Positions 1,208 to 12,018 of a stretch of DNA of 25,684 nucleotides are shown piece after piece (position 1 is the first letter of the stretch; every line of letters begins with the position of its first letter). Under the pieces are notes generated by a model. It saw nothing but the letters and a program-made list of their open reading frames with translations, was not told the DNA's origin and made no database searches. The DNA lies in IMG/VR virus record IMGVR_UViG_3300029467_000153. The stretch is one strand, 5' to 3'. The stretch is from a virus. Taxonomy: Duplodnaviria; Heunggongvirae; Uroviricota; Caudoviricetes. Position numbers and translations under genes: made by a program.

Positions 1208-2503
1208 TTAATTTTTCATTGCTTCGTTATGGGGCATGGTTGGGGCAAACTCGCTTAACTGTGTATTTAACAAAGCTACCTGTGCATTATTGTTTTCAGA
1301 CATCCATTTTCCGTATACCTGAAATACCATTTGCGCATCTGCATGGCCCATCTGGTTTGCTATAAATGCCGGGTTAGCACCAGCTGTCAGCGACCAGCAG
1401 GCATAAGTATGTCTCGACTGATATGATTTTCGATGGCGGAGTCCGGCACGTTTTATCGCTGCGTCCCACATCTGCCTTATTGAGTCAACGGTAAAATGGT
1501 CACCATAATTTTTTACTCTCGCTGACACTTCAGGTTGAAAAACAAAGGTGCATTTTTGTTTTTCTGTTCTGCCATACTCTCTGAGGTGAACATCAATGAT
1601 ATGCTCTTTGCTCAGTCTCGTTAATGTCATCTGACTCCGGAGAGCGTCGATTGCTGGCTTAATAAGATGAATGACCCGATTGGTTCCCGCCTGTGTTTTT
1701 GGTACCGTGAAACGGTCTTTTGCTAAATTTCTCCTGATCATCATTGTTCCATTTTTCAGATCTATGTCCTCCCATCCAAGTGCACACAGCTCACCAGGGC
1801 GAACGCCAGTATAAACAGAAACACACCATAAATTTTTTGCTTGCTGATTTCTGCACGCATCGATAAGACGGATAAATTCTTCCCGCGAAAGAGGATCCGG
1901 AATGGTTCTTGATTCCTTTAATGGCGAGATCCCCTTAAACGGATTATCTGCCAGGTAACCGTTATCAACACCAAACTGGAACACGGCGTTAAGATTTGTC
2001 ATGTAATTATTTACAGTTACAGCCGATCTCCCTGGTTGTGTAACAATATAGTTACTTTTGGGGATCTGGTATCCAGTCAGTAACTCTTTACGAACCTCCA
2101 GTAATTTTTCTTTATTAATCGATGAGGCAAGATTTTTTTCACCGATTATGCTCAGGATATTTTTGATGACGGCACGGTATGTGTTGAGTGATGTTTTGGC
2201 GACTTCAGTTTCTTTCAGTGCCAGAAATTTTTCAGCCAGTTCTTTTATGGTTAAATCTTGTCGGGCCTCACCAAATTTTTCCAGATTGCGTGAGGAGGGA
2301 AACTGTTTTGCATAGTCGAAAACACCAGTTTTTATTGCGTAACAAACAGAGGAGCGTAGTTCACCTGCAACGCGCCTGTTTTTTGCTGTGTCAGGAACCC
2401 CCAGATTTTCCCTGACTCTTACGTCTTTATAAACAAACCAGATACGTAATTTCCCTCCATGGTTTTCCACGCCTGTCGGATATTTCATTTCAACTTCTCT
2501 CAT
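1208..2503 (-). CDS. int: phage tyrosine integrase (full length)
   Basis: 431-aa ORF with tyrosine-recombinase C-terminal motifs (RHTYACW; GHADAQMVFQVYGKW) and an N-terminal arm-binding-type region; sits next to attL and is transcribed toward it. The second ATG at 2488 (MKYPTG) has the better purine-rich upstream context. Confidence 0.9.
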   Translation of the reverse strand: MREVEMKYPTGVENHGGKLRIWFVYKDVRVRENLGVPDTAKNRRVAGELRSSVCYAIKTGVFDYAKQFPSSRNLEKFGEARQDLTIKELAEKFLALKETEVAKTSLNTYRAVIKNILSIIGEKNLASSINKEKLLEVRKELLTGYQIPKSNYIVTQPGRSAVTVNNYMTNLNAVFQFGVDNGYLADNPFKGISPLKESRTIPDPLSREEFIRLIDACRNQQAKNLWCVSVYTGVRPGELCALGWEDIDLKNGTMMIRRNLAKDRFTVPKTQAGTNRVIHLIKPAIDALRSQMTLTRLSKEHIIDVHLREYGRTEKQKCTFVFQPEVSARVKNYGDHFTVDSIRQMWDAAIKRAGLRHRKSYQSRHTYACWSLTAGANPAFIANQMGHADAQMVFQVYGKWMSENNNAQVALLNTQLSEFAPTMPHNEAMKN

Positions 2504-2522
2504 TAGTTAGTGTGGCTTTTAG

Positions 2523-2774
2523 TCAAGTAAGATGACGTCTTGGTCTCGCTGATGCCTGGCGCTCAATCCAGCGATCAATTTCTTCCAGGTTGTAAAAGCA
2601 TGGACTGTTATCCCATGGCATACCGTCATGAGCGACATGCTTATATTCCCTTCCTTCCATAAACGATTTTTCCCGGGCCTTTTTTAACGTACCTTTTTTT
2701 ATTCCTTTCAGCGCAATTAACTGCTCTTCGGATACCCATTTGCCGGGAGAGACAATCATGATTACTTCGCTCAT
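2523..2774 (-). CDS. xis: putative excisionase / small DNA-binding protein
   Basis: 83-aa ORF immediately upstream of int on the same strand, basic C-terminus; call is by position and size only. Confidence 0.45.
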   Translation of the reverse strand: MSEVIMIVSPGKWVSEEQLIALKGIKKGTLKKAREKSFMEGREYKHVAHDGMPWDNSPCFYNLEEIDRWIERQASARPRRHLT

Positions 2775-2846
2775 CGATTTCTTTATCTCTTACATCAGAC
2801 GAGCGCCGGTTGCAGAATACCAGTCACAACCGGCGACAGTTGAACA

Positions 2847-5318
2847 TTAAGAATCAGCCTGACTCGGGATCAGTTTTTGCCAGATAACTGAAACGTATTT
2901 TGCCTGGTAACGGGCGTCATCAAGTGCATTATGGCGCTCACCTTCGAATGGAATAGCCGTTCTGGCATCGAAGTCTATGGCTTTCCCCAGCTCAACGATT
3001 GTGCGTACATCGCGATCGTTGTAGTAACGCCACGGGCAGGGGATCCCCTGCCGTTCGTATGAACGGCGCAAAATCGTGTTGTCGAAGTTGGCTCCATTTC
3101 CCCAAACCTGAACAAAAAATTCACCGGAGTTTTCGTCGATAAATTCTCGCAATTGTAACAGTGCATCATCTAACGGGATTTCATCGGTCATAATGGCAGA
3201 TTGCGCTTCGCGTGATTGCTTAAGCCACCATTTAATGGTGTCCCGATCAATGACTCCGCCAGCAGTTTCCAGATCGATAGTCTTACTAAATTCCGGTCCC
3301 ATATCTCCGGTTTGCGGATCGAAAAATATTGCACCTATTGAGATGATCGGGGCATCAGGATTTTTTCCCATGGTTTCAAGGTCGATCATTAGATGGTCAC
3401 ACGTCCTGCTGGTGGATGTGATTTCGTGATGACTGTTCACCTTAATTGGGTGATCTGCCGTCTCGCCAGTTTCATTATCGCTATTGTGATGCTGATTGCC
3501 GCCAGTGTTCTCCTTGTGTGGATGTTCAGCGCCTTCCATTTCCTCCGGATCATCTTCCTGAACTTCAACCTGATACTCTTCATCGAATGTTTCTTGGTAT
3601 GTTGCGTCGCCCATCACCGCGCCACAATCAGGGCAGTTGCCGCCGCCGGTCTGACCGCAGGCGGTGCAGACTTTTTCCACTTCCTGTTGCGCTACTGGTT
3701 CAGGCTGTTTCGTTTCTGGCTCGTTTTGTAACGCATTTGGACTGTTTTGTTCCGCTTTTTGGTAGTTCCGTTCCGATTCATGCTGGTTCTGGTTCACAGA
3801 ATCGCGGGTCTGGAGCCCCTTAACCCATTTCGGATCATTCGGGTCACTAATCCCTTCAACAAATTCACCACGTGATGCAGCAAGCAACTTATCGGCGTCA
3901 GGCTGGCTGATATTGGCTGCCTGCATAATTTTGTTTACTTCGTCAGCGGTAACTTTTATCGGCTCTGGTTGTTCTGAATCTTCAGCGGTATCTACATTTT
4001 GCGGTAAGCCCGTGTATGTGCCATTTTTTCGGGCAAAATATTCTTCTTTTGTGATTTCAGTGGCGCCAGCAGCCAGTGCCTTATCCAGACCAGAGAGTTT
4101 GTTTGCGCGACCGTATTTTTCTCCGTCCTTATCTGCGAAGAGGAAATAGAACGGCCCCTCACGCTCTACAGATGGTTCAGCTTCCGGCGCGGTTTCATTT
4201 TTTGGGATATCAGATACCTCAGTTTCCACTGCATCAGTTTGTGTGTCTGATGACTGGAGAACATCAACAGTGCCCAGGTCTGTTTCTTCATTCTCAAACA
4301 CGCCCTTTGTCGTCAGGTATTCGCAGATATATTTGTTCAGTGCTACGGGATCTTTGTGAATGTCGATCGGACGCTCACGGACAAGGCCAAAAATAGTTTG
4401 GCGGTCGTAGCGAAGGGCATCAGGCTGTTTGCGCATTGATGCCGAGATACGCTTCCAGTCTTCGCGGTCGTTGTCGATAACTTCTTTTTTTGCCCAGCGA
4501 TGGATGCTGCCGTCAATGTTTCCGGCATCCACATCACTAGGCCAGAGAGCGTAGGCCAGTTCGTCATCCAGTGTTTTCCATGTCTGCTTGTATTCGCGAT
4601 GAATGGCAGCAATGACCGGGCTGATTTTTCCTGTTGAATTTTCAGTGTACTGTTGATTGGCTCTGGCGCGGGCGAGATCAACAACAGACGTGTATTTTCC
4701 GGTTTCCTTGCGTTCACCTTCGCGACGTTTTTTCCAGATGCGCATCTCTGCCTGAATTTCGGGCCATTTAGCACCAGGAATACATTTATGCTTAACCCAC
4801 CCAATGGCGTGCAACTTAAGCTCCGGATACATGGCGTTAACTTCTGGCATTTTCATCAACGCTTCAACGATATGTCCGTCGAATGTTGCCATGTCTTCCT
4901 GCAACAATTCCTGTGCGCTAATAACCATATCAACGGTGATGTTTTCACATGTGTCGAACTTAACCATGACAGCGTTCTGTACTTCAGGGGCCAGCTTGTC
5001 AAAAGTGACGTTCATCGGATCGGATTCAGTCTCAACCGGGACAAAAGAAGCAGACTCCTCATCCCAGCGGTTTTCCTGCATATATTCAGCATCCCATGAA
5101 TCGAGGGCAGGGCGGGGTATGCCAGGTTTATCCTCGCAGACAATAAATTTATAAGCGCAGTCCTGAGCAGCCGGATAATGTTCTAGGAATTGCCAGTGAA
5201 ATTTTGCTCGAGCACGGCGTTCGTCGCCAGCTTCAATGGCTGTGGCTACAGCCACAGCGCCTTCTTCCCTTGTTGCCAGTTCGTCAGGAATAGCGGCGCA
5301 AATAAAGACTTTACTCAT
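2847..5318 (-). CDS. large prophage protein with C-terminal DEDDh (DnaQ-like) 3'-5' exonuclease domain; family often annotated exodeoxyribonuclease VIII-like
   Basis: 823-aa ORF; C-terminal about 180 aa carry Exo I (MIDLETMG), Exo II (GNGANFDNTIL) and Exo III (HNALDDARYQ) motifs; central acidic low-complexity linker and a Cys4 motif (CTACGQTGGGNCPDCG); occupies the exo/bet position of the leftward operon. Confidence 0.7.
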   Translation of the reverse strand: MSKVFICAAIPDELATREEGAVAVATAIEAGDERRARAKFHWQFLEHYPAAQDCAYKFIVCEDKPGIPRPALDSWDAEYMQENRWDEESASFVPVETESDPMNVTFDKLAPEVQNAVMVKFDTCENITVDMVISAQELLQEDMATFDGHIVEALMKMPEVNAMYPELKLHAIGWVKHKCIPGAKWPEIQAEMRIWKKRREGERKETGKYTSVVDLARARANQQYTENSTGKISPVIAAIHREYKQTWKTLDDELAYALWPSDVDAGNIDGSIHRWAKKEVIDNDREDWKRISASMRKQPDALRYDRQTIFGLVRERPIDIHKDPVALNKYICEYLTTKGVFENEETDLGTVDVLQSSDTQTDAVETEVSDIPKNETAPEAEPSVEREGPFYFLFADKDGEKYGRANKLSGLDKALAAGATEITKEEYFARKNGTYTGLPQNVDTAEDSEQPEPIKVTADEVNKIMQAANISQPDADKLLAASRGEFVEGISDPNDPKWVKGLQTRDSVNQNQHESERNYQKAEQNSPNALQNEPETKQPEPVAQQEVEKVCTACGQTGGGNCPDCGAVMGDATYQETFDEEYQVEVQEDDPEEMEGAEHPHKENTGGNQHHNSDNETGETADHPIKVNSHHEITSTSRTCDHLMIDLETMGKNPDAPIISIGAIFFDPQTGDMGPEFSKTIDLETAGGVIDRDTIKWWLKQSREAQSAIMTDEIPLDDALLQLREFIDENSGEFFVQVWGNGANFDNTILRRSYERQGIPCPWRYYNDRDVRTIVELGKAIDFDARTAIPFEGERHNALDDARYQAKYVSVIWQKLIPSQADS

Positions 5319-5411: not shown

Positions 5412-5612
5412 TTAAAGACCTGCCGGGATTTCGATATTATCCTGGTGAATAACTTTATCGACCGGGTAACAGTTACCGGGAATTTTCTGTTCGGTTGCTG
5501 CAGTCATACACTCCTGCATTGTCCTGTGAACACTGACTGCAATATCAACTGGCACTCCGGAAACAAGAAAAACTGTCAGAACAAGCGCAAATGCTGAATT
5601 TATTGTGCACAT
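5412..5612 (-). CDS. ydfD: small prophage protein, YdfD-like (lysis-associated in K-12 Qin)
   Basis: 66 aa from the internal Met (MCTINSAFALVLTVFLVSG...), hydrophobic N-terminus; lies directly downstream of dicB as in K-12. Identity is from memory and the start is uncertain (ORF extends to 5657). Confidence 0.5.
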   Translation of the reverse strand: MCTINSAFALVLTVFLVSGVPVDIAVSVHRTMQECMTAATEQKIPGNCYPVDKVIHQDNIEIPAGL

Positions 5613-5788
5613 CCTTTTGGCATCAGACGTAAACGAGCCAGCATTGAAACAATGCATATTTTATTTAATAGCTCCCGTTCTTGTTTTCTCTTGTTAATGG
5701 CATCTTCAGTAAATACAGGGTTACTGATAGTGACACCAATTTCAAAACAACCTTCAGACGTATTAACGTTTGGTAATAACGTTTTCAT
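5600..5788 (-). CDS. dicB: cell-division inhibitor DicB
   Basis: 62-aa ORF MKTLLPNVNTSEGCFEIGVTISNPVF... matching my recollection of DicB; GAGGA Shine-Dalgarno 9-13 nt upstream of the ATG. Confidence 0.7.
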   Translation of the reverse strand: MKTLLPNVNTSEGCFEIGVTISNPVFTEDAINKRKQERELLNKICIVSMLARLRLMPKGCAQ

Positions 5789-5929
5789 TATCGCGTCCTC
5801 AACAATGAATTTTGTGATGCAGTGCCTGGTGCCTCCAGGTGACGTTAACCAGTTAACAATTAACGTCGGATATTCGAACGCTGGAAGGCTATCGACACCA
5901 GGGATAAGCGTGAAAAGTTCACGGCGCTA

Positions 5930-6193
5930 GTGCCTGCAATTATGGAGGCTATTCGGATTAATGATTTCAGGTTGTATCGTGAAATTAGTGACGGAAAAAG
6001 CATCACGTACATGATCGCCGGGTTAAACAAAGAATATGGCGATGTGGTGGAGTCCGGACTGCTTTTTGCTGATCCTGCCGTAGTGGATCGTGAAACTGAC
6101 GAACTTATAGAAAAAGCAATTGCTTTCAAACTTGCGTATCGACAGCAATACCAACAAAAAGCTGGATGGAATTATGAGCCTTCTTTTTGCTGA
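5930..6193 (+). CDS. hypothetical protein, first gene of the rightward early region
   Basis: 87-aa ORF (GTG at 5930 or ATG at 5942) with balanced composition, unlike the Ser/Thr-rich antisense ORF 5860-6129; its stop overlaps the start of the next gene (coupling). Weak RBS. Confidence 0.3.
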   Translation: MPAIMEAIRINDFRLYREISDGKSITYMIAGLNKEYGDVVESGLLFADPAVVDRETDELIEKAIAFKLAYRQQYQQKAGWNYEPSFC

Positions 6194-7046
6194 ACGCCCA
6201 CTGGTTATAAACACACAGCTTGCGATGAAGATTGGCTTAAATGAAGCCATTGTGTTGCAGCAGTTGCATTACTGGTTGAGAGATACCAATTCCGGCATGG
6301 AATGTGATGGTGTTCGCTGGATTTACAACACAACGGAACAATGGCTGGAACAGTTCCCATTCTGGTCAGAGTCAACGTTAAAGCGCGCGTTTGCAAGTCT
6401 GAAAACGCTGGGGCTTTTGCGTTGTGAAAAGCTCAATAAATCAAAGCGCGATATGACCAATTTCTACACGATCAACTACGGGAGCGAGCTTTTAGATGGT
6501 GGCAAATTGAGCGAATCCATCGGTTTAAAATGCGCCGCTCCATCAGGTCAAAATGACACGATGGAAGAGGTCAAAATGAAACGCTCCATTGGTTCAAAAC
6601 GACCCAATGTCATCGGGTCAAAATGGCCTGATGATCTTACAGAGAATACAACAGAGATTACTACAGAGAATAAAAACACTTTTCGTCCGGAAGCTTCGCA
6701 ACCGGACCCGCAGACCGCTGAACAGGATTTTTTAACCCGGAACCCCGACGCGGTTGTGTTTAGTGCGAAAAAACGCCAGTGGGGTAGCAGGGAGGATTTG
6801 GCGTGTGCGCAGTGGATTTGGGGGCGGATCGTGAACCTTTACGAACAGGCTGCCAGCGACGATGGAGAGATCATGCGACCAAAAGAGCCTAACTGGACAG
6901 CCTGGGCCAATGACGTGCGCACAATGCGGATGCTGGATGGCAGAAGCCACAGACAAATTTGCGAAATGTTTGGTCGGGTAAGCCAGATTCTGGCACTGAC
7001 AGATAGAAAGCCTGTTATCTGTCAACGAACAGGGAAAAAACGATAA
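6174..7046 (+). CDS. phage replisome-organiser / replication-initiator-like protein (winged-helix N-terminal domain)
   Basis: Start chosen at the internal ATG 6174 (MSLLFAERPLVINTQLAMKIGLNEAIVLQQLHYWL...); the N-terminal pattern ...EQWLEQFPFWSESTLKRAFASLKTLGLLRCEK resembles DnaD / phage replisome-organiser N-domains. Recognised by pattern only. Confidence 0.45.
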   Translation: MSLLFAERPLVINTQLAMKIGLNEAIVLQQLHYWLRDTNSGMECDGVRWIYNTTEQWLEQFPFWSESTLKRAFASLKTLGLLRCEKLNKSKRDMTNFYTINYGSELLDGGKLSESIGLKCAAPSGQNDTMEEVKMKRSIGSKRPNVIGSKWPDDLTENTTEITTENKNTFRPEASQPDPQTAEQDFLTRNPDAVVFSAKKRQWGSREDLACAQWIWGRIVNLYEQAASDDGEIMRPKEPNWTAWANDVRTMRMLDGRSHRQICEMFGRVSQILALTDRKPVICQRTGKKR

Positions 7047-7566
7047 AACCCACTGGATTATTTTTATGAAAGAGGCATCCAGTGAGTAGATTCGTAAGGT
7101 TACAGATACGTATATCTGAATAATTAAATTCAGTTCTGTAAATAAAACTTAATCCTTAACCGGATGGATTTCTGCACCCTCAGAACATCAGGAGGCCGCC
7201 CGAAAGGGCGGTAGTGAAATGCGAAAGTTCAAAATTATTATTGAAACGGGAATAGCTGGTGGAGATTTTGAGGATGTATTCGAAGTGGACGATGACGCAA
7301 CACCTGATGAAATTCATGACGGAGCATAAGAAATTTTCTTTAACTACTGCAATTACTCATACCACGAAATAAAAGACGATGAGGAAGAACAAAGTGGCTG
7401 ATTTTTGTTCAGCTAAATATAACATCAGTTTTGAAGAGCGGGATGAACTATTAATGGACTATGGTGAGTTACGCGGTGGAAGTGCTGCTGATGTCGAATC
7501 CTAGCGTGATGACTATGAAGCGGGAAAAACTCCGGTCGAAGCATATTGTGATGAGTGGGGCGATGA

Positions 7567-7854
7567 ATGAGCGAGATTAATTATCAGGAAGGGCATGAAA
7601 CGGCGGGGCAAGCAAAACCAGTGACATGGCGATATCGCTACGTGAAAAAAGGCGTTACGGACTTTCAGGGGAAGTAGTGGTCTGGTGACTGGAAATATGT
7701 ACCGAAAAAAGAGGATTGTAACGACAGGCCGAACTATCAAATTCAGGCCTTATTCACTGCCTCACCAGTCCCGGTTACATCAGAAGAATTGGTTAAAGCT
7801 GTGCACTTTTATGAACAACTAAAACGCGAAAATCCACCAACATCCGGCAACTAG
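7567..7854 (+). pseudogene. about 95-codon ORF interrupted by a single in-frame amber codon
   Basis: MSEINYQEGHETAGQAKPVTWRYRYVKKGVTDFQGK-TAG(7675-7677)-WSGDWKYVPKKEDCNDRPNYQIQALF...PPTSGN in one frame; the frame stays open on both sides of the stop. Confidence 0.3.
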
Positions 7855-8108
7855 ATTAATGGGTTAACTATGTCGGTTAAACGACCAGCCAACTGAAAAA
7901 GCGGAAACCTGATTACAGGTTGCCAGATAAGGCAATGAGCTACCTGGCGCGGAACGGACTGATAAGTATGGGGAATGTTTTACGATGAACCTTTAGACTA
8001 AAGAGTTTGTAACGCTATGTAAGTGATTTTTTCTGGTTTAGATATTTATATGTCCGGCCAAATTGAGGTGTGTTTAAATGTAATTGCACATTGATTGTAG
8101 GAGGAATA

Positions 8109-8246
8109 ATGAAAAACGCATTGCAGTTTTTGTTTGTTGCGTTCTGGTTGTTCGCATCATGTATGCCCATCATCTTCACAGCAAGGTATATGGAAAAAGT
8201 TGATGTTTTGATATTAATATTTGGATATATAAATGCCCTTTTTTAG
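8109..8246 (+). CDS. small hydrophobic (membrane) protein, 45 aa
   Basis: AGGAGG at 8099-8104, 4 nt before ATG 8109; product MKNALQFLFVAFWLFASCMPIIFTARYMEKVDVLILIFGYINALF is largely one hydrophobic helix. Confidence 0.35.
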   Translation: MKNALQFLFVAFWLFASCMPIIFTARYMEKVDVLILIFGYINALF

Positions 8247-8621
8247 GGGTGTTCATGGCGGTCATGTGCATTGAATACTGGCGGTAAATACAGCGAACTC
8301 CATTGGTTTAGTTGGATATTTACTGTGCTGGACAAAAACGGTTTGCGGGGAAATCTTAGTTAAGTAGAATGACTGCGGGTGCTTGAGGCTATCTGCCTCG
8401 GGCACGAACACCAACGGCAGGTAGAGAAAAGCCCCAGTTAACATTACGCGTCCTGCAAGACGCTTAACATTAATCTGAGGCCAATTTCATGCCAGACACA
8501 TGTAGGTTAGCCTCTTACGTGCCGAAAGGCAAGGAGAAGCAGGCTATTGTTAACACCAAGCTGTAATGTCCCCTTTGAACCATTCTAAAATGTCCCCAGA
8601 CAATTCTCTGGGGGATTTTTC

Positions 8622-9963
8622 ATGACCAAAGAAACTGTTACGATGAGTCATAAGGAACTCCACCGACTTCAGATTATTCAGGAGTCAATTAATCGACATA
8701 TTACTCAGGAACAAGCTGCGGCACGCATTGGCATTTCTATTCGGCAGGTTAAACGTCTGGTGCAACGGTATAGAAATGAAGGGCCTTCTGGTCTGGTTTC
8801 CCACCGACGTGGAAAGCGTCCTAATAATTCCTTTTCTACTGAATTCAGAGCAACAGTAATTTCACTCCTCAAAGGCCGTTACGCTGATTTTGGACCTACG
8901 TTTGCGTGCGAAAAATTGCGCGAGATACACGGTTTATCTTTATCCGTTGAAACTCTCAGAAAGTGGATGATAGAAGAGGGGGGTATGGCGTGAACGCCGT
9001 CGTAAAATTGCCCGTATATATCAACGCCGCATGCGACGACCATCTTACGGTGAACTGATCCAGATTGATGGCTCACCTCATGACTGGTTTGAAAATCGAG
9101 GCCCCAGATGTACACTGATCGTTTTCATTGATGATGCCACCAGTGCGTTGATGGCGTTGCGTTTTGTGCCTGCTGAAACAACCCGGGCTTACATGGAAAC
9201 CCTCCGGGGTTACCTTAATGATCATGGCGTACCGCTCGCTCTCTACTCTGATAGACACAGTATATTCAGGGTAAATAACCCAGAGCGGGAAGGTGAGCTG
9301 ACCCAGTTCACTCGTGCGATAAAGACACTGGGCATCGAGCCAATCCATGCCAACAGCCCGCAGGCAAAAGGGCGGGTAGAGCGCGCCAATCAGACACTAC
9401 AGGACAGGCTGGTCAAAGAAATGCGGCTTCAGAATATCAGTGATATTGAAACAGCAAATGCATGGTTGCCGACCTTTATTGAAGCCTATAACAACCGGTT
9501 CGCTACGTCGCCTCGTACTACTGATAATGCTCATCTTGATGTGCACCATTCTGAAGAGGAACTGGGTTATATCTTCAGCCTACAGGCGAAGCGCGTTCTG
9601 TCTAAAAATCTCACTTTCCAGTACAAAAGCAGTGCGTTTCAGGTACGCAGTGAGGGCCGGGGATATCGACTTAGGCATTCGGTTGTTACTGTATGCGAGA
9701 ACTTTGACGGTGAAATTAACGTTCTGTATGACGGGAAAGCGCTGGGCTGGGAAAAGTATGTTGATGGCCCGGAGCCTATACCACTGGATGATGAAAAGAG
9801 TGTCCATGAACGAGTGGATAATGCCCGTATTGATTTACGCTCAAAATACTATGTTAAACCTAAAGCTGACCATCCCTGGCTTACGCGCCGAACGCAAAGT
9901 CATCAGCAAGTTAAGCCCCCGAAGTTACCTAAAAAGAAGCCTGATCCCGATAAAAAAGATTGA
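8622..9963 (+). mobile_element. IS-element DDE transposase (N-terminal HTH plus integrase-core/rve-like domain), split by a frameshift
   Basis: ORF 8622-8993 (HTH-like N-terminus) and ORF 9031-9963 (DDE-like motifs IQIDGSPHDW, YSDRHSIF, SPQAKGRVERANQTL) are in different frames and overlap around a G6 run at 8978-8983; removing one G fuses them (...MIEEGVWRERRRKIARIYQRRMRRPSYGELIQIDG...). IS family and terminal inverted repeats were not determined. Confidence 0.65.
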
Positions 9964-10399
9964 AACCAAGATCGATTCGGTTGAGTGCATATCCATTCAT
10001 AGGGTAGATTCTTAAGTCGCGTTTCTGGTGTTCATTTTCGGGTGGTTTGTTACTTGTTTTACCGGGGATATGCCAGAAACGCGCTGAGTCAGTCTGGGCG
10101 GTGCGCGTAATGAGGCGTTATGGTAAATAGCCTATGCTAATGTCCGCTAAGAGCAAGAAGCGGAAGTTGGCAGTTTTGTGGACTGTCCCCACAAAAGTGA
10201 CTACAGAAATAGTTGCAATTCATAATTGATCATGGGTTGTCAGTTAAACTCGTGGCGATTTAAATAGACTAATTGGGAGTGCGTCCATTACTTATATCTT
10301 GTAATGTTAACTATCAGAAATGATACAAAGATAATATGTCTTTAAAGAAAAGGCTGATGGCGAAAAGTGGCCCGATGAGGGCCACAATACGGCTGTCAC

Positions 10400-10732
10400 T
10401 TAGACGTAAATATCAATGGTGCCAGCGGTATTTGTATCGTCTTTTTTCTCTTCTTTTTTATCAGGCTGAACTGTCGCGTCTTTATTCTTTTTCTCTGCCT
10501 GCTGCCTTAACAACTGCTCCAGTTGAGCCCTGAGGCTTTCAATTTGCTTCTGTACCAATGCAGCCATTTCTTTTTTCTGCTGTGTCGTCATCCCCTCTTC
10601 CGATGAGATTTTCCCAAGCTTTTCAGTCAGCACCTGAATTTGTCTTGTGATTTTGGCTATTTCTGATGTTCCTTCCGGGGCGGAGTTGTTTGAAATAACG
10701 GTTGAGGTATTTCCCTGAATTGTGACAGACAT
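10400..10732 (-). CDS. flxA: FlxA (FliA-regulated protein)
   Basis: 110-aa ORF MSVTIQGNTSTVISNNSAPEGTSEIAKITRQIQVLTEKLGK... matching my recollection of FlxA; AAGGAG Shine-Dalgarno 7 nt upstream; a sigma-28-type promoter lies immediately upstream. Confidence 0.75.
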   Translation of the reverse strand: MSVTIQGNTSTVISNNSAPEGTSEIAKITRQIQVLTEKLGKISSEEGMTTQQKKEMAALVQKQIESLRAQLEQLLRQQAEKKNKDATVQPDKKEEKKDDTNTAGTIDIYV

Positions 10733-10755
10733 AGATTTCTCCTTTTAAAAAAGCA

Positions 10756-10782
10756 CTATCGGCATGCACAAAAAAATCTTTA
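10756..10782 (-). promoter_or_regulatory. sigma-28 (FliA) class-3 promoter of flxA
   Basis: On the minus strand TAAAGATT-N11-GCCGATAG against the consensus TAAAGTTT-N11-GCCGATAA, about 25-50 nt upstream of the flxA ATG. Confidence 0.6.
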
Positions 10783-10934
10783 ATCGTATTTCTTGTGTCA
10801 TTAATTGTTTGATGTTCAGATTGTTTTCCTCGCGGGCTGGCGCGCCTCAGAAAGTAAAGCTTGTTGACAGGGGTAAACGTTCGGCAATAATTTTCTGCCG
10901 CATGCGGGTGTTGCATAAAACGTGCTACGTTCCT

Positions 10935-11240
10935 TTATCGACAGGTCAGGTCACCGCTCACCCGCCGACGAGAAAGCAACACTGACATGCTAAAGCAAAA
11001 AATAGATGAATAAGTTGAGTTGTGCATATGTAGCCTGACCGTCACAAAGTATATGGTGTCTGTACCAGTAAGATGATGGCCGGACTCTTTAAAAACGAGC
11101 TGACCTGCACAATACAGGATGGACTTAGCAATGGCTGCTCCTGGCACAAAGCGGACAGTGATCACCGTTCTTACGACTACTTTCTGACTTCCTTCGTGAC
11201 TTGCCCTAAGCATGTTGTAGTGCGATACTTGTAATGACAT
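10935..11240 (-). CDS. hypothetical protein (YdfV-like by position)
   Basis: 101-aa ORF divergent from relB; assigned only by position and length relative to K-12 gene order. Its start abuts the relB operator, which is suspicious. Confidence 0.25.
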   Translation of the reverse strand: MSLQVSHYNMLRASHEGSQKVVVRTVITVRFVPGAAIAKSILYCAGQLVFKESGHHLTGTDTIYFVTVRLHMHNSTYSSIFCFSMSVLLSRRRVSGDLTCR

Positions 11241-11253
11241 TTGTAATTACAAG
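11228..11253 (+). promoter_or_regulatory. relBE operator (relO-type inverted repeats) in the relB promoter
   Basis: cttgtaatgacatttgtaattacaag contains the perfect palindrome TTGTAATTACAA plus an additional TTGTAAT half-site, ending 12 nt before the relB ATG. Confidence 0.6.
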
Positions 11254-11264
11254 AGGTGTAAGAC

Positions 11265-11504
11265 ATGGGTAGCATTAACCTGCGTATTGACGATGAACTT
11301 AAAGCGCGTTCTTACGCCGCGCTTGAAAAAATGGGTGTAACTCCTTCTGAAGCGCTTCGTCTCATGCTCGAGTATATCGCTGACAATGAACGCTTGCCGT
11401 TCAAACAGACACTCCTGAGTGATGAAGATGCTGAACTTGTGGAGATAGTGAAAGAACGGCTTCGTAATCCTAAGCCAGTACGTGTGACGCTGGATGAACT
11501 CTGA
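11265..11504 (+). CDS. relB: RelB antitoxin
   Basis: 79-aa ORF MGSINLRIDDELKARSYAALEKMGVTPSEALRLMLEYIADNERLPF... (ribbon-helix-helix antitoxin); GAGGTG Shine-Dalgarno; stop overlaps the relE start (ATGA). Confidence 0.9.
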   Translation: MGSINLRIDDELKARSYAALEKMGVTPSEALRLMLEYIADNERLPFKQTLLSDEDAELVEIVKERLRNPKPVRVTLDEL

Positions 11505-11791
11505 TGGCGTATTTTCTGGATTTTGACGAGCGGGCACTAAAGGAATGGCGAAAGCTGGGCTCGACGGTACGTGAACAGTTGAAAAAGAAGCTGGTTGAAG
11601 TACTTGAGTCACCCCGGATTGAAGCAAACAAGCTCCGTGGTATGCCTGATTGTTACAAGATTAAGCTCCGGTCTTCAGGCTATCGCCTTGTATACCAGGT
11701 TATAGACGAGAAAGTTGTCGTTTTCGTGATTTCTGTTGGGAAAAGAGAACGCTCGGAAGTATATAGCGAGGCGGTCAAACGCATTCTCTGA
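11504..11791 (+). CDS. relE: RelE mRNA-interferase toxin
   Basis: 95-aa ORF MAYFLDFDERALKEWRKLGSTVREQLKKKL...GYRLVYQVIDEKVVVFVISVGKRERSEVY, translationally coupled to relB. Confidence 0.9.
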   Translation: MAYFLDFDERALKEWRKLGSTVREQLKKKLVEVLESPRIEANKLRGMPDCYKIKLRSSGYRLVYQVIDEKVVVFVISVGKRERSEVYSEAVKRIL

Positions 11792-11862
11792 ACCAAAGCA
11801 TGACATCTCTGTTTCGCACCGAAGGTGACACTTCTGCTTTGCGTTGACAGGAGAAGCAGGCT

Positions 11863-12018
11863 ATGAAGCAGCAAAAGGCGATGTTAATCGCCCTGATCGT
11901 CATCTGTTTAACCGTCATAGTGACGGCACTGGTAACGAGGAAAGACCTCTGCGAGGTACGAATCCGAACCGGCCAGACGGAGGTCGCTGTCTTCACAGCT
12001 TACGAACCTGAGGAGTAA
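11863..12018 (+). CDS. hokD: Hok-family type I toxin (HokD/RelF)
   Basis: 51-aa ORF, below the ORF-track cutoff, found by direct translation: MKQQKAMLIALIVICLTVIVTALVTRKDLCEVRIRTGQTEVAVFTAYEPEE; carries the Hok signature TRK.LCE.R....EVA.F.AYE and sits just downstream of relE. Confidence 0.85.
   Translation: MKQQKAMLIALIVICLTVIVTALVTRKDLCEVRIRTGQTEVAVFTAYEPEE

Follow-up and report, generated by a model that had tools for sequence, protein, structure and literature searches.

The stretch of DNA considered here, virus record IMGVR_UViG_3300029467_000153 (Caudoviricetes; 25,684 nucleotides, in the following the window), is a variant of the cryptic lambdoid prophage Qin (Kim) of Escherichia coli, with 99.5–99.9% nucleotide identity to strain K-12 MG1655 where both have sequence. 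At its positions 5870–8330 lies a block of rightward frames, namely the remains of a CII-like gene, a lambda-O-like replication initiator gene with an internal origin, three interrupted accessory genes and, last in the row, an open reading frame (ORF) for a small hydrophobic protein. This block is very probably a non-functional relic of the Qin rightward early operon, that is, of its CII-like gene, its origin-containing initiator gene and its nin/ea-like small accessory genes, while the last ORF, alone among its elements, was probably still a functioning gene not long ago.

The decayed early block of a Qin-type prophage

The window starts in rspB and continues with the integrase gene, an excisionase-sized ORF, the gene of an 823-aa exonuclease (an intact ydfE) and, on the minus strand, ydfD and dicB; flxA, ydfV, relBE, hokD and cold-shock genes lie beyond the studied block. 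Both the chromosomal site (beside rspB) and the gene order match the dicB/dicF–relBE–hokD region of Qin in K-12, and the region is 98–99.9% identical to annotated Qin-type prophages, of which NZ_CM129877 (locus L001; 99.9% identical) was the main relative used for comparison. The deletions of the two prophages are complementary: K-12 has lost window positions 5952–9778, so that this is literally the least K-12-like part of the prophage, as an earlier note on the sequence had put it, whereas the window lacks the dicC-dicA-ydfA-ydfB-ydfC-dicF block. K-12 Qin retains dicC-dicA-ydfABC-dicF together with the 5′ part of ydaT (annotated ydfX), and does not share the second deletion of the window, of 986 bp. 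By keeping the segment that K-12 lost, the window allows the ancestral layout to be reconstructed: a CII-like gene, the origin-containing initiator gene, DUF977, a methyltransferase gene, the small accessory genes, the membrane-protein ORF and hok/sok.

The frames listed in the earlier note are all present, with limits that agree exactly or to within 1–2 bases, and the gene decay suspected there is borne out by deletions, nonsense codons and frameshifts relative to intact relatives. They are more than chance ORFs, their conceptual translations through the stops matching phage families (PHROG, Pfam); only the hydrophobic ORF is without such a match. The features to which they belong are collected in table 1.

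Table 1. Features of the studied block and its right-hand border, with the frame first listed at each place (SD, Shine–Dalgarno sequence; SAM, S-adenosylmethionine; PGAP, the NCBI Prokaryotic Genome Annotation Pipeline).
Feature	Position	Strand	Frame as first listed	Basis and details
Deletion 1 junction	5869–5872			4-nt microhomology GATA; blastn against L001 and K-12; junction sequences
ydaT 3′ remnant (CII-like, PHROG 163)	5870–6193	+	87 aa, 5930–6193, +, GTG to stop	107 of 173 codons, without start codon or promoter
Lambda-O-like initiator gene	6174–7046	+	290 aa from ATG (308 aa from upstream TTG), 6174–7046, +	Codons 1–269 of 321 native (to 6980), then 21 foreign codons and stop
Phage origin within initiator gene	6504–6675			Repeat search
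Deletion 2 junction	6977–6980			Microhomology GGTA; comparison with L001
SAM-dependent methyltransferase pseudogene, 3′ remnant	6981–7089	+		Mapped to PGAP feature 4776–5220 of L001
DUF7167 / PHROG 1997 pseudogene, 60 codons full length	7219–7401	+	36 aa, 7219–7329, +	TAA at 7327–7329 in place of AAA (Lys) of intact copies
58-codon phage pseudogene (resembles C-terminal half of PHROG 519)	7394–7570	+	41 aa, 7379–7504, +	PHROG 519 at 2.4e-11
PHROG 660 pseudogene, 171 codons when intact	7567–7988	+	Amber-interrupted, from 7567, in-frame TAG 7675–7677, +	PHROG 660 at 5.2e-28
Small membrane-protein gene	8099–8287	+	45 aa, 8109–8246, AGGAGG at 8099–8104, +	SD AGGAGG 8099–8104, ATG 8109, ancestral stop TAA 8285–8287, 59 codons
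sok/mok leader half of hok/sok	8331–8547	+		Rfam sok RF01794, 99.8 bits (gathering score 59), 8377–8548
Inserted unit, 3301 bp	8548–11848			ISEsa1-type (IS1202 family) transposase, flxA, ydfV, relB, relE

Two deletions frame the left part of the block. The first took away 2.2 kb, in which lay ydfB, ydfA, the repressor gene, a cro/dicC-type gene and the 5′-most 197 nt of ydaT; compared with K-12, what is missing is dicC-dicA-ydfABC-dicF, and the whole immunity region went with it. What is left of ydaT, the C-terminal 107 codons only, has the same sequence as the C-terminal part of YdaT as annotated in L001 and matches PHROG 163 at E = 4.7e-14 over profile positions 84–152 of 168; the Pfam family PF06254 (YdaT) gave no match for this fragment, with 26.1 bits (cut-off 21) for the intact relative. 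The 87-aa frame, taken for a gene in the earlier note, is part of this remnant, its 5′ end deleted. The second deletion (986 bp) cost the initiator gene its final 52 codons and also took the DUF977 gene and most of the SAM-methyltransferase pseudogene. The 290-aa frame thus consists of 269 native codons and of 21 that are read out of frame from the methyltransferase pseudogene. As shown by the junction sequences, both deletions arose by illegitimate recombination at 4-nt microhomologies in this E. coli lineage. On the other side of the first junction, dicB (5600–5788, minus strand) keeps only about 84 nt of upstream sequence; since the dicF small RNA, the promoter region and the genes of the repressors of dicB are all deleted, this division-inhibitor gene is left without its known promoter or regulators.

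The rightward early promoter region is likewise deleted in the window, and a scan for promoter consensus sequences and terminators gave 2 promoter-like sites against 6.6 expected by chance, and nothing above chance. From the loss of this region and the want of a promoter-like site that stands out, we infer that the frames between 5870 and 8330 are silent relics.

The three genes that follow the methyltransferase remnant belong to the small lambdoid accessory genes of unknown function (DUF7167, PHROG 519 and PHROG 660), matched here over their full length or in part. Their order and translational coupling are as in the intact phages 640R1 and 689R5 and in CFT073-type prophages but, unlike in these, all three copies in the window are inactivated. 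The 36-aa ORF listed first runs on past its TAA as a full-length DUF7167 gene, the translation of which scores 49.2 bits against Pfam PF23768 (cut-off 24.4), over positions 1–60 of the 60 of the profile, and matches PHROG 1997 at 2.9e-28. Besides the stop, which stands where five intact prophage and phage copies, 100% identical in protein, have AAA, the window carries 5 further replacements. The second gene had been overlooked in the earlier note: the ATG of the 41-aa ORF at 7379 is fortuitous, and the true gene starts at 7394, where ATG has become GTG, and continues past a TAG at 7502–7504 that replaces TGG (Trp), with 9 other replacements and with a stop that overlaps the start of the next gene (ATGA). 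Intact 58-aa proteins are found in the compared loci L003, L004 and L006–L008.

The frame of roughly 95 codons with its amber codon, in turn, is only the 5′ part of the 171-codon gene, in which the homology is present and the frame broken at four places, as read from the pairwise alignment with the intact gene of FDAARGOS_1259: (i) TAG at 7675–7677, for which the comparison with relatives proposed earlier gave a sense codon, CAG (Gln) in vB_EcoS-689R5 and CCG (Pro) in FDAARGOS_1259; (ii) a 90-nt in-frame deletion after 7830, between two AATCC(A/G)CCA repeats; (iii) TAG at 7852–7854, CAG in the intact copy; and (iv) a 4-nt deletion after 7885. Intact orthologues of the small accessory genes occur in the induced phages vB_EcoS-640R1 and vB_EcoS-689R5 and in the prophages of CFT073, FDAARGOS_1259 and strain C7. 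The first lesion of the 171-codon gene is a single point mutation, and the amber frame looks open on both sides of it for that reason rather than through read-through. With three further lesions downstream, nonsense mutations in the neighbouring genes and the early promoter and immunity region deleted, the suggestion that this frame might be expressed does not hold. Nor are two of the interrupted frames unrecognised functions, PGAP having already annotated them as pseudogenes in relatives (DUF7167 with ‘internal stop’, the 171-codon gene as ‘frameshifted; internal stop’; the 58-codon gene is unannotated); for the region as a whole, a hidden function finds marginal support only.

The lesions of the accessory genes are common to L001, L002, IAI1 and W-type strains, and the number of contigs with the truncated peptides ranges from hundreds to more than 1000, which shows the decay to be of long standing and wide distribution. 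Being common to many other E. coli, the nonsense mutations in the three consecutive genes would be independent of, and earlier than, the two deletions. Nor is anything special needed to account for three in a row: over 745 nt, the window and 640R1 are 92.3% identical, with about 57 differences, and, on a rough estimate that assumes that 4–5% of random substitutions create stops, neutral decay predicts about three of them.

Selection appears relaxed in two of these genes. For DUF7167 and the 58-codon gene together, the ratio of non-synonymous to synonymous differences per site (pN/pS) is 0.16–0.18 between the window and intact copies, as compared with 0.06–0.10 between 689R5 and the other intact copies (the remaining intact–intact pairs differ at 0–3 sites and are uninformative). 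Two points weigh against so simple a picture of decay. The pseudogene value is still far below 1, most of the divergence from the phage copies having been accrued while the genes were functional. Furthermore, read-through transcription may reach the block from the antisense side of dicB-ydfD.

Two observations on these genes may be added. In 640R1 (L004:3950–4207) and CFT073 (L006:2131–2447), A8 replaces A6 in the third small gene and shifts the frame, and the 85-aa product annotated there is a frameshift artefact; this gene thus decays independently in several lineages. At the start of DUF7167 (7190–7221), an AGGAGG and the ATG are separated by 23 nt, with a 6-bp GC hairpin (CCGCCC-GAAA-GGGCGG) between them. 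The hairpin, which phage 640R1 also has, yields a fold z-score of only −1.9 and could bring the SD sequence to a functional distance, as has been described for some T4 genes.

A probable family of 59-residue membrane proteins

The 45-aa hydrophobic frame is the frameshifted form of a 59-codon gene. The run of T at 8239–8244 has six residues in the window, and seven, with the 59-codon frame, in all 9 other distinct sequences compared; the shift leads to the stop at 8246, so that the copy is exact over residues 1–45 and then lacks the conserved C-terminal 14 residues (LGVF...IEYWR), with F49, E56 and W58–R59. The earlier suggestion that the membrane peptide may be expressed is right in a historical sense only: the peptide belongs to a genuine unannotated small-protein family, while the copy in the window is inactivated or at least truncated. 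Truncation may not be the end of the matter, the 45-aa allele being found on 29 contigs, so that a shortened product might still be made.

That the family represents a genuine small membrane-protein gene is likely, on the strength of its deeper homologues. An exhaustive HMMER scan retrieved a paralog of exactly 59 residues and 39% identity, situated between ttcA and uspF in an island that is itself degraded. Of 5426 complete E. coli genomes, 1045 have this paralog, which is unannotated, and 1570 have the segment with the Qin locus. The paralog and the Qin-locus ORF are 59% identical in nucleotide sequence, without indels and over the ORF only, the flanks being unalignable. The ratio of non-synonymous to synonymous substitution rates (dN/dS) against the paralog is 0.21–0.24, as expected of a protein-coding gene under purifying selection between lineages. 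The copy of strain TA280, 76% identical, gives a dN/dS of 0.31, with 8, 4 and 15 differences at the three codon positions, and its ORF is 84% identical in nucleotide sequence as compared with 62% for the upstream spacer. Across the family, 20 columns are invariant, among them W13, S17-C18, P20-I21-I22, T24, F38-G39, N42-A43-L44, F49, E56 and W58-R59. AlphaFold predicts a helical hairpin (residues 2–25 and 31–58) with a confidence score (pLDDT) of 73. In relatives, of which IAI1 and CFT073 are examples with the intact allele, the gene would encode a predicted hairpin of two transmembrane helices; as a mosaic module of its own, it is placed after the accessory genes and before the hok/sok toxin–antitoxin locus.

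Several results pull the other way. Among the close copies (n = 16), there are 4 non-synonymous and 0 synonymous substitutions, with a substitution density of 2.2% in the ORF and 5.3% in the flanks, so that the polymorphism test on these copies is uninformative or negative, and it was the deeper homologues of the HMMER scan that decided. About 15–20% of the catalogued variants are frameshifted at the T run and, together with the 4:0 ratio, this makes the gene in cryptic prophages seem to be under relaxed selection. The diverged lineages behind the case for function are, moreover, only three, all of them Escherichia.

The same results give some room to an improbable yet not negligible alternative, namely that the hydrophobic ORF is a frame open by chance, within non-coding but conserved DNA that serves the hok/sok module as leader or spacer. 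The whole of 7990–8480 is 97–100% conserved among prophages, spacers included, and the ORF, besides its 4:0 substitutions and frequent frameshifts, is never annotated by PGAP (RefSeq) in the genomes that carry the segment and has no match in Pfam, PHROGs, NCBIfam or PADLOC. However, the paralog has the same start, the same stop and 59 codons without indels at an unrelated locus, between unalignable flanks and with no adjacent hok/sok; the differences between lineages concentrate at third codon positions, at the dN/dS values given above; the invariant columns run across the family; and a strong SD sequence precedes the ORF at ideal spacing. A small membrane-protein gene therefore remains the better account of this ORF.

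What such a protein does can be approached by likeness only. Its size, topology and position are the reasons why the intact protein might be labelled an inner-membrane accessory protein of the ‘moron’ type, acting, for example, on incoming phage or on membrane integrity. HK97 gp15 and T4 Imm are prophage ‘moron’ inner-membrane proteins of this sort, active in superinfection exclusion, and the comparison extends to small size, two predicted transmembrane helices, an own strong SD sequence and a place as mosaic module in the prophage accessory region; the resemblance is of kind only, no sequence similarity of the 59-aa protein to any described family having been found. A literature search with peptide strings gave no match. 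Tentatively, and with the balance of expectation against it, the protein and its paralog could be an unrecognised, Escherichia-restricted family of expressed prophage membrane proteins with a real cellular role. If so, the role might be superinfection exclusion, or the modulation of the neighbouring Hok toxin or of the membrane; the family would be present but unannotated in roughly between one-fifth and one-third of the genomes of E. coli; and the T homopolymer run would act as a frequent on/off switch. To have exposed a small membrane family that annotation pipelines miss is of modest value, as is the reconstruction of the ancestral Qin layout. Among the small ORFs of the block and their intact homologues taken together, DUF7167 in Pfam was the only match obtained in Pfam, NCBIfam and PADLOC.

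The paralog (L026:5001–5180 and equivalents) adjoins an integrase fragment and ABC-3 pseudogene fragments, ttcA–uspF being the Rac attachment region; where 1.8-kb stretches of its loci were compared, the flanks showed 16–28 differences and the ORF 0–2.

The truncated initiator and its origin

The earlier description of the 290-aa gene as replisome-organiser-like was apt. Its product matches PHROG 391 (O-like) at 6.5e-68 over residues 17–271, and also PHROGs 9773, 277 and 678; in Pfam nothing exceeded the threshold and lambda O was not matched. The gene contains five iterons with a period of 23–24 nt and the core GGTCAAAATG (6504–6633), followed by three 12-nt AT-rich repeats (TACAGAGAATAC/AAA; 6638–6675). 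The lambda origin has the same layout and lies inside the O gene, so that in both cases an iteron array is followed by an AT-rich stretch in mid-gene. Unlike lambda, none of the relatives has a P-type partner, and the intact Qin-type initiator has a DnaT-like tail of 20 residues. The absence of a P/DnaC-type helicase loader, remarked on in the earlier note, is thus a property of the window and of its intact relatives alike, in which the gene after the initiator is DUF977. By comparison with the 321-aa protein of L001, the window has lost the C-terminal 52 residues with the DnaT-like tail, and the C-terminal domain for recruiting the helicase-loading machinery is incomplete, being cut at codon 269 of 321.

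Could what is left of the initiator still matter, as a titration site for the initiator of a related phage, or as a dominant-negative protein against superinfecting Qin-like phages? The first 269 residues and all iterons are intact, at 99.8% identity to relatives, and the allele persists in a lineage; but it has no promoter, the recent date of the deletion accounts for the high identity, and nothing sets the allele apart from neutral persistence. Such a role is quite improbable.

The tail lost from the window deserves a comment of its own. In the Qin relatives, the intact O-like initiator ends in QRCVNHISEPDTEIPPGFRG (L001:4209–4268), which matches the extreme C-terminus of E. coli DnaT (PDB 2ru8, 6aep and 9zbt; E = 3e-4 with a 40-aa query). 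In the search of PDB sequences, the O-like protein was matched through this tail only, and DUF977 gave nothing significant. The otherwise unrelated ‘O’ protein of phages 640R1 and 689R5 (L004:2569–2628) has the same 20 residues alone in common with it, 19 of the 20 being identical. The tail may mimic the host protein and serve for docking, in place of a loader of the P/DnaC type, which could explain why these phages have none; a literature search for the DnaT-like motif gave no match. As a feature common to unrelated phage initiators, a DnaT-mimicking tail may matter more than the studied block.

For the interrupted accessory genes, the corresponding escape from decay would be that the in-frame stops are tolerated or recoded, through a suppressor tRNA or programmed read-through, with full-length proteins still being made. 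Each interrupted frame is open on both sides of its stop and still matches its family over the full length, and amber accounts for two-thirds of the stops. However, both TAA and TAG occur among the stops, and the sense codon replaced, conserved in intact copies, differs from one stop to the next (Lys, Trp, Gln/Pro); in the same genes, a start codon has been lost, a frame shifted, 90 nt deleted and an excess of replacements accumulated; their promoter region is deleted; and neither a tRNA nor a recoding signal is seen in the region, where the Rfam search gave sok alone. Read-through was rejected on account of the three different sense codons in relatives and the additional lesions, and has hardly any claim left against inactivation.

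Most improbable of all is that faulty sequencing or assembly produced the deletions and the T6 frameshift, the true locus being like that of IAI1/PCP06021: although the two junctions occur as one continuous match in none of the 5426 complete RefSeq genomes, and homopolymer runs are prone to errors, the exact 290-aa fusion protein recurs, with dicB, the ydaT fragment and the fusion adjacent in the same order and with the 45-aa allele, on at least 24 independent contigs from isolates and gut metagenomes, obtained in differing runs and on differing platforms, one of them of 4.78 Mb, and an artefact was therefore rejected.

Taken alone, the studied block is of little importance, since what it documents is ordinary cryptic-prophage decay, mostly flagged already as pseudogenes in RefSeq relatives.

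A split hok/sok locus and its relBE-carrying insertion

The right-hand limit of the decayed block is the sok/mok leader, which is itself one part of an interrupted locus. Homology to intact loci breaks off within the hok start codon (8547) and is taken up again immediately ahead of hokD (11849), so that the leader is not contiguous with a hok ORF, hokD being 3.3 kb off at 11863. Thus, 8331–8547 and 11849–12018 are the two halves of one hok/sok locus, parted by a 3.3-kb insertion; they are contiguous in the prophages of CFT073, FDAARGOS_1259 and strain C7, and K-12 is without the leader half.

The inserted unit carries a transposase gene that is frameshifted in the window (8622–8993 and 9031–9963), has an imperfect inverted repeat of 30 nt at its ends (matching at 22 of the 30 positions) and is flanked by a 16-nt direct repeat, AGGAGAAGCAGGCTAT, at 8532–8547 and 11849–11864. 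The same unit, 99.3–99.9% identical, is found at the equivalent position in two different plasmid hok-family loci, each time with a 16-nt duplication of its own: AGGAGAAGAAGGCCAT in the IncF plasmid NZ_CP096189, upstream of a Hok protein beginning MKLPRNTL, and ATGGAGGGGCTATGAT in the IncI plasmid NZ_CP030003, where the transposase is intact, upstream of a protein of the Hok/Gef family that begins MPQRTF. In other plasmids, shorter ISEsa1 copies have the same left junction at a hok ribosome-binding site. Read from these junctions, the three cases are independent insertions, each with a true 16-bp target-site duplication and each splitting the hok start codon between its AT and its G, and relBE, flxA and ydfV look like the cargo of a transposon that targets hok translation-initiation regions. 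The relBE–hokD (‘relBEF’) arrangement of K-12 would then have arisen when a cargo-carrying IS1202-family transposon landed in the hok/sok locus of Qin. In a survey of the IS1202 family, ISEsa1 is given as 1609 bp long with no detectable duplication (PMC10132070), and a literature search found no paper describing the 3301-bp relBE-carrying element. If relBE is indeed carried by an IS1202-family transposon with precise insertion at hok start codons, this, too, may matter more than the studied block.

At the prophage's opposite end, the genes of the integrase (1208–2503) and of the 823-aa exonuclease (2847–5318; ydfE-type, with a C-terminal 3′–5′ exoribonuclease-like domain) are both intact in the window, whereas in K-12 they are disrupted by IS2, window positions 2368–4551 being missing there.

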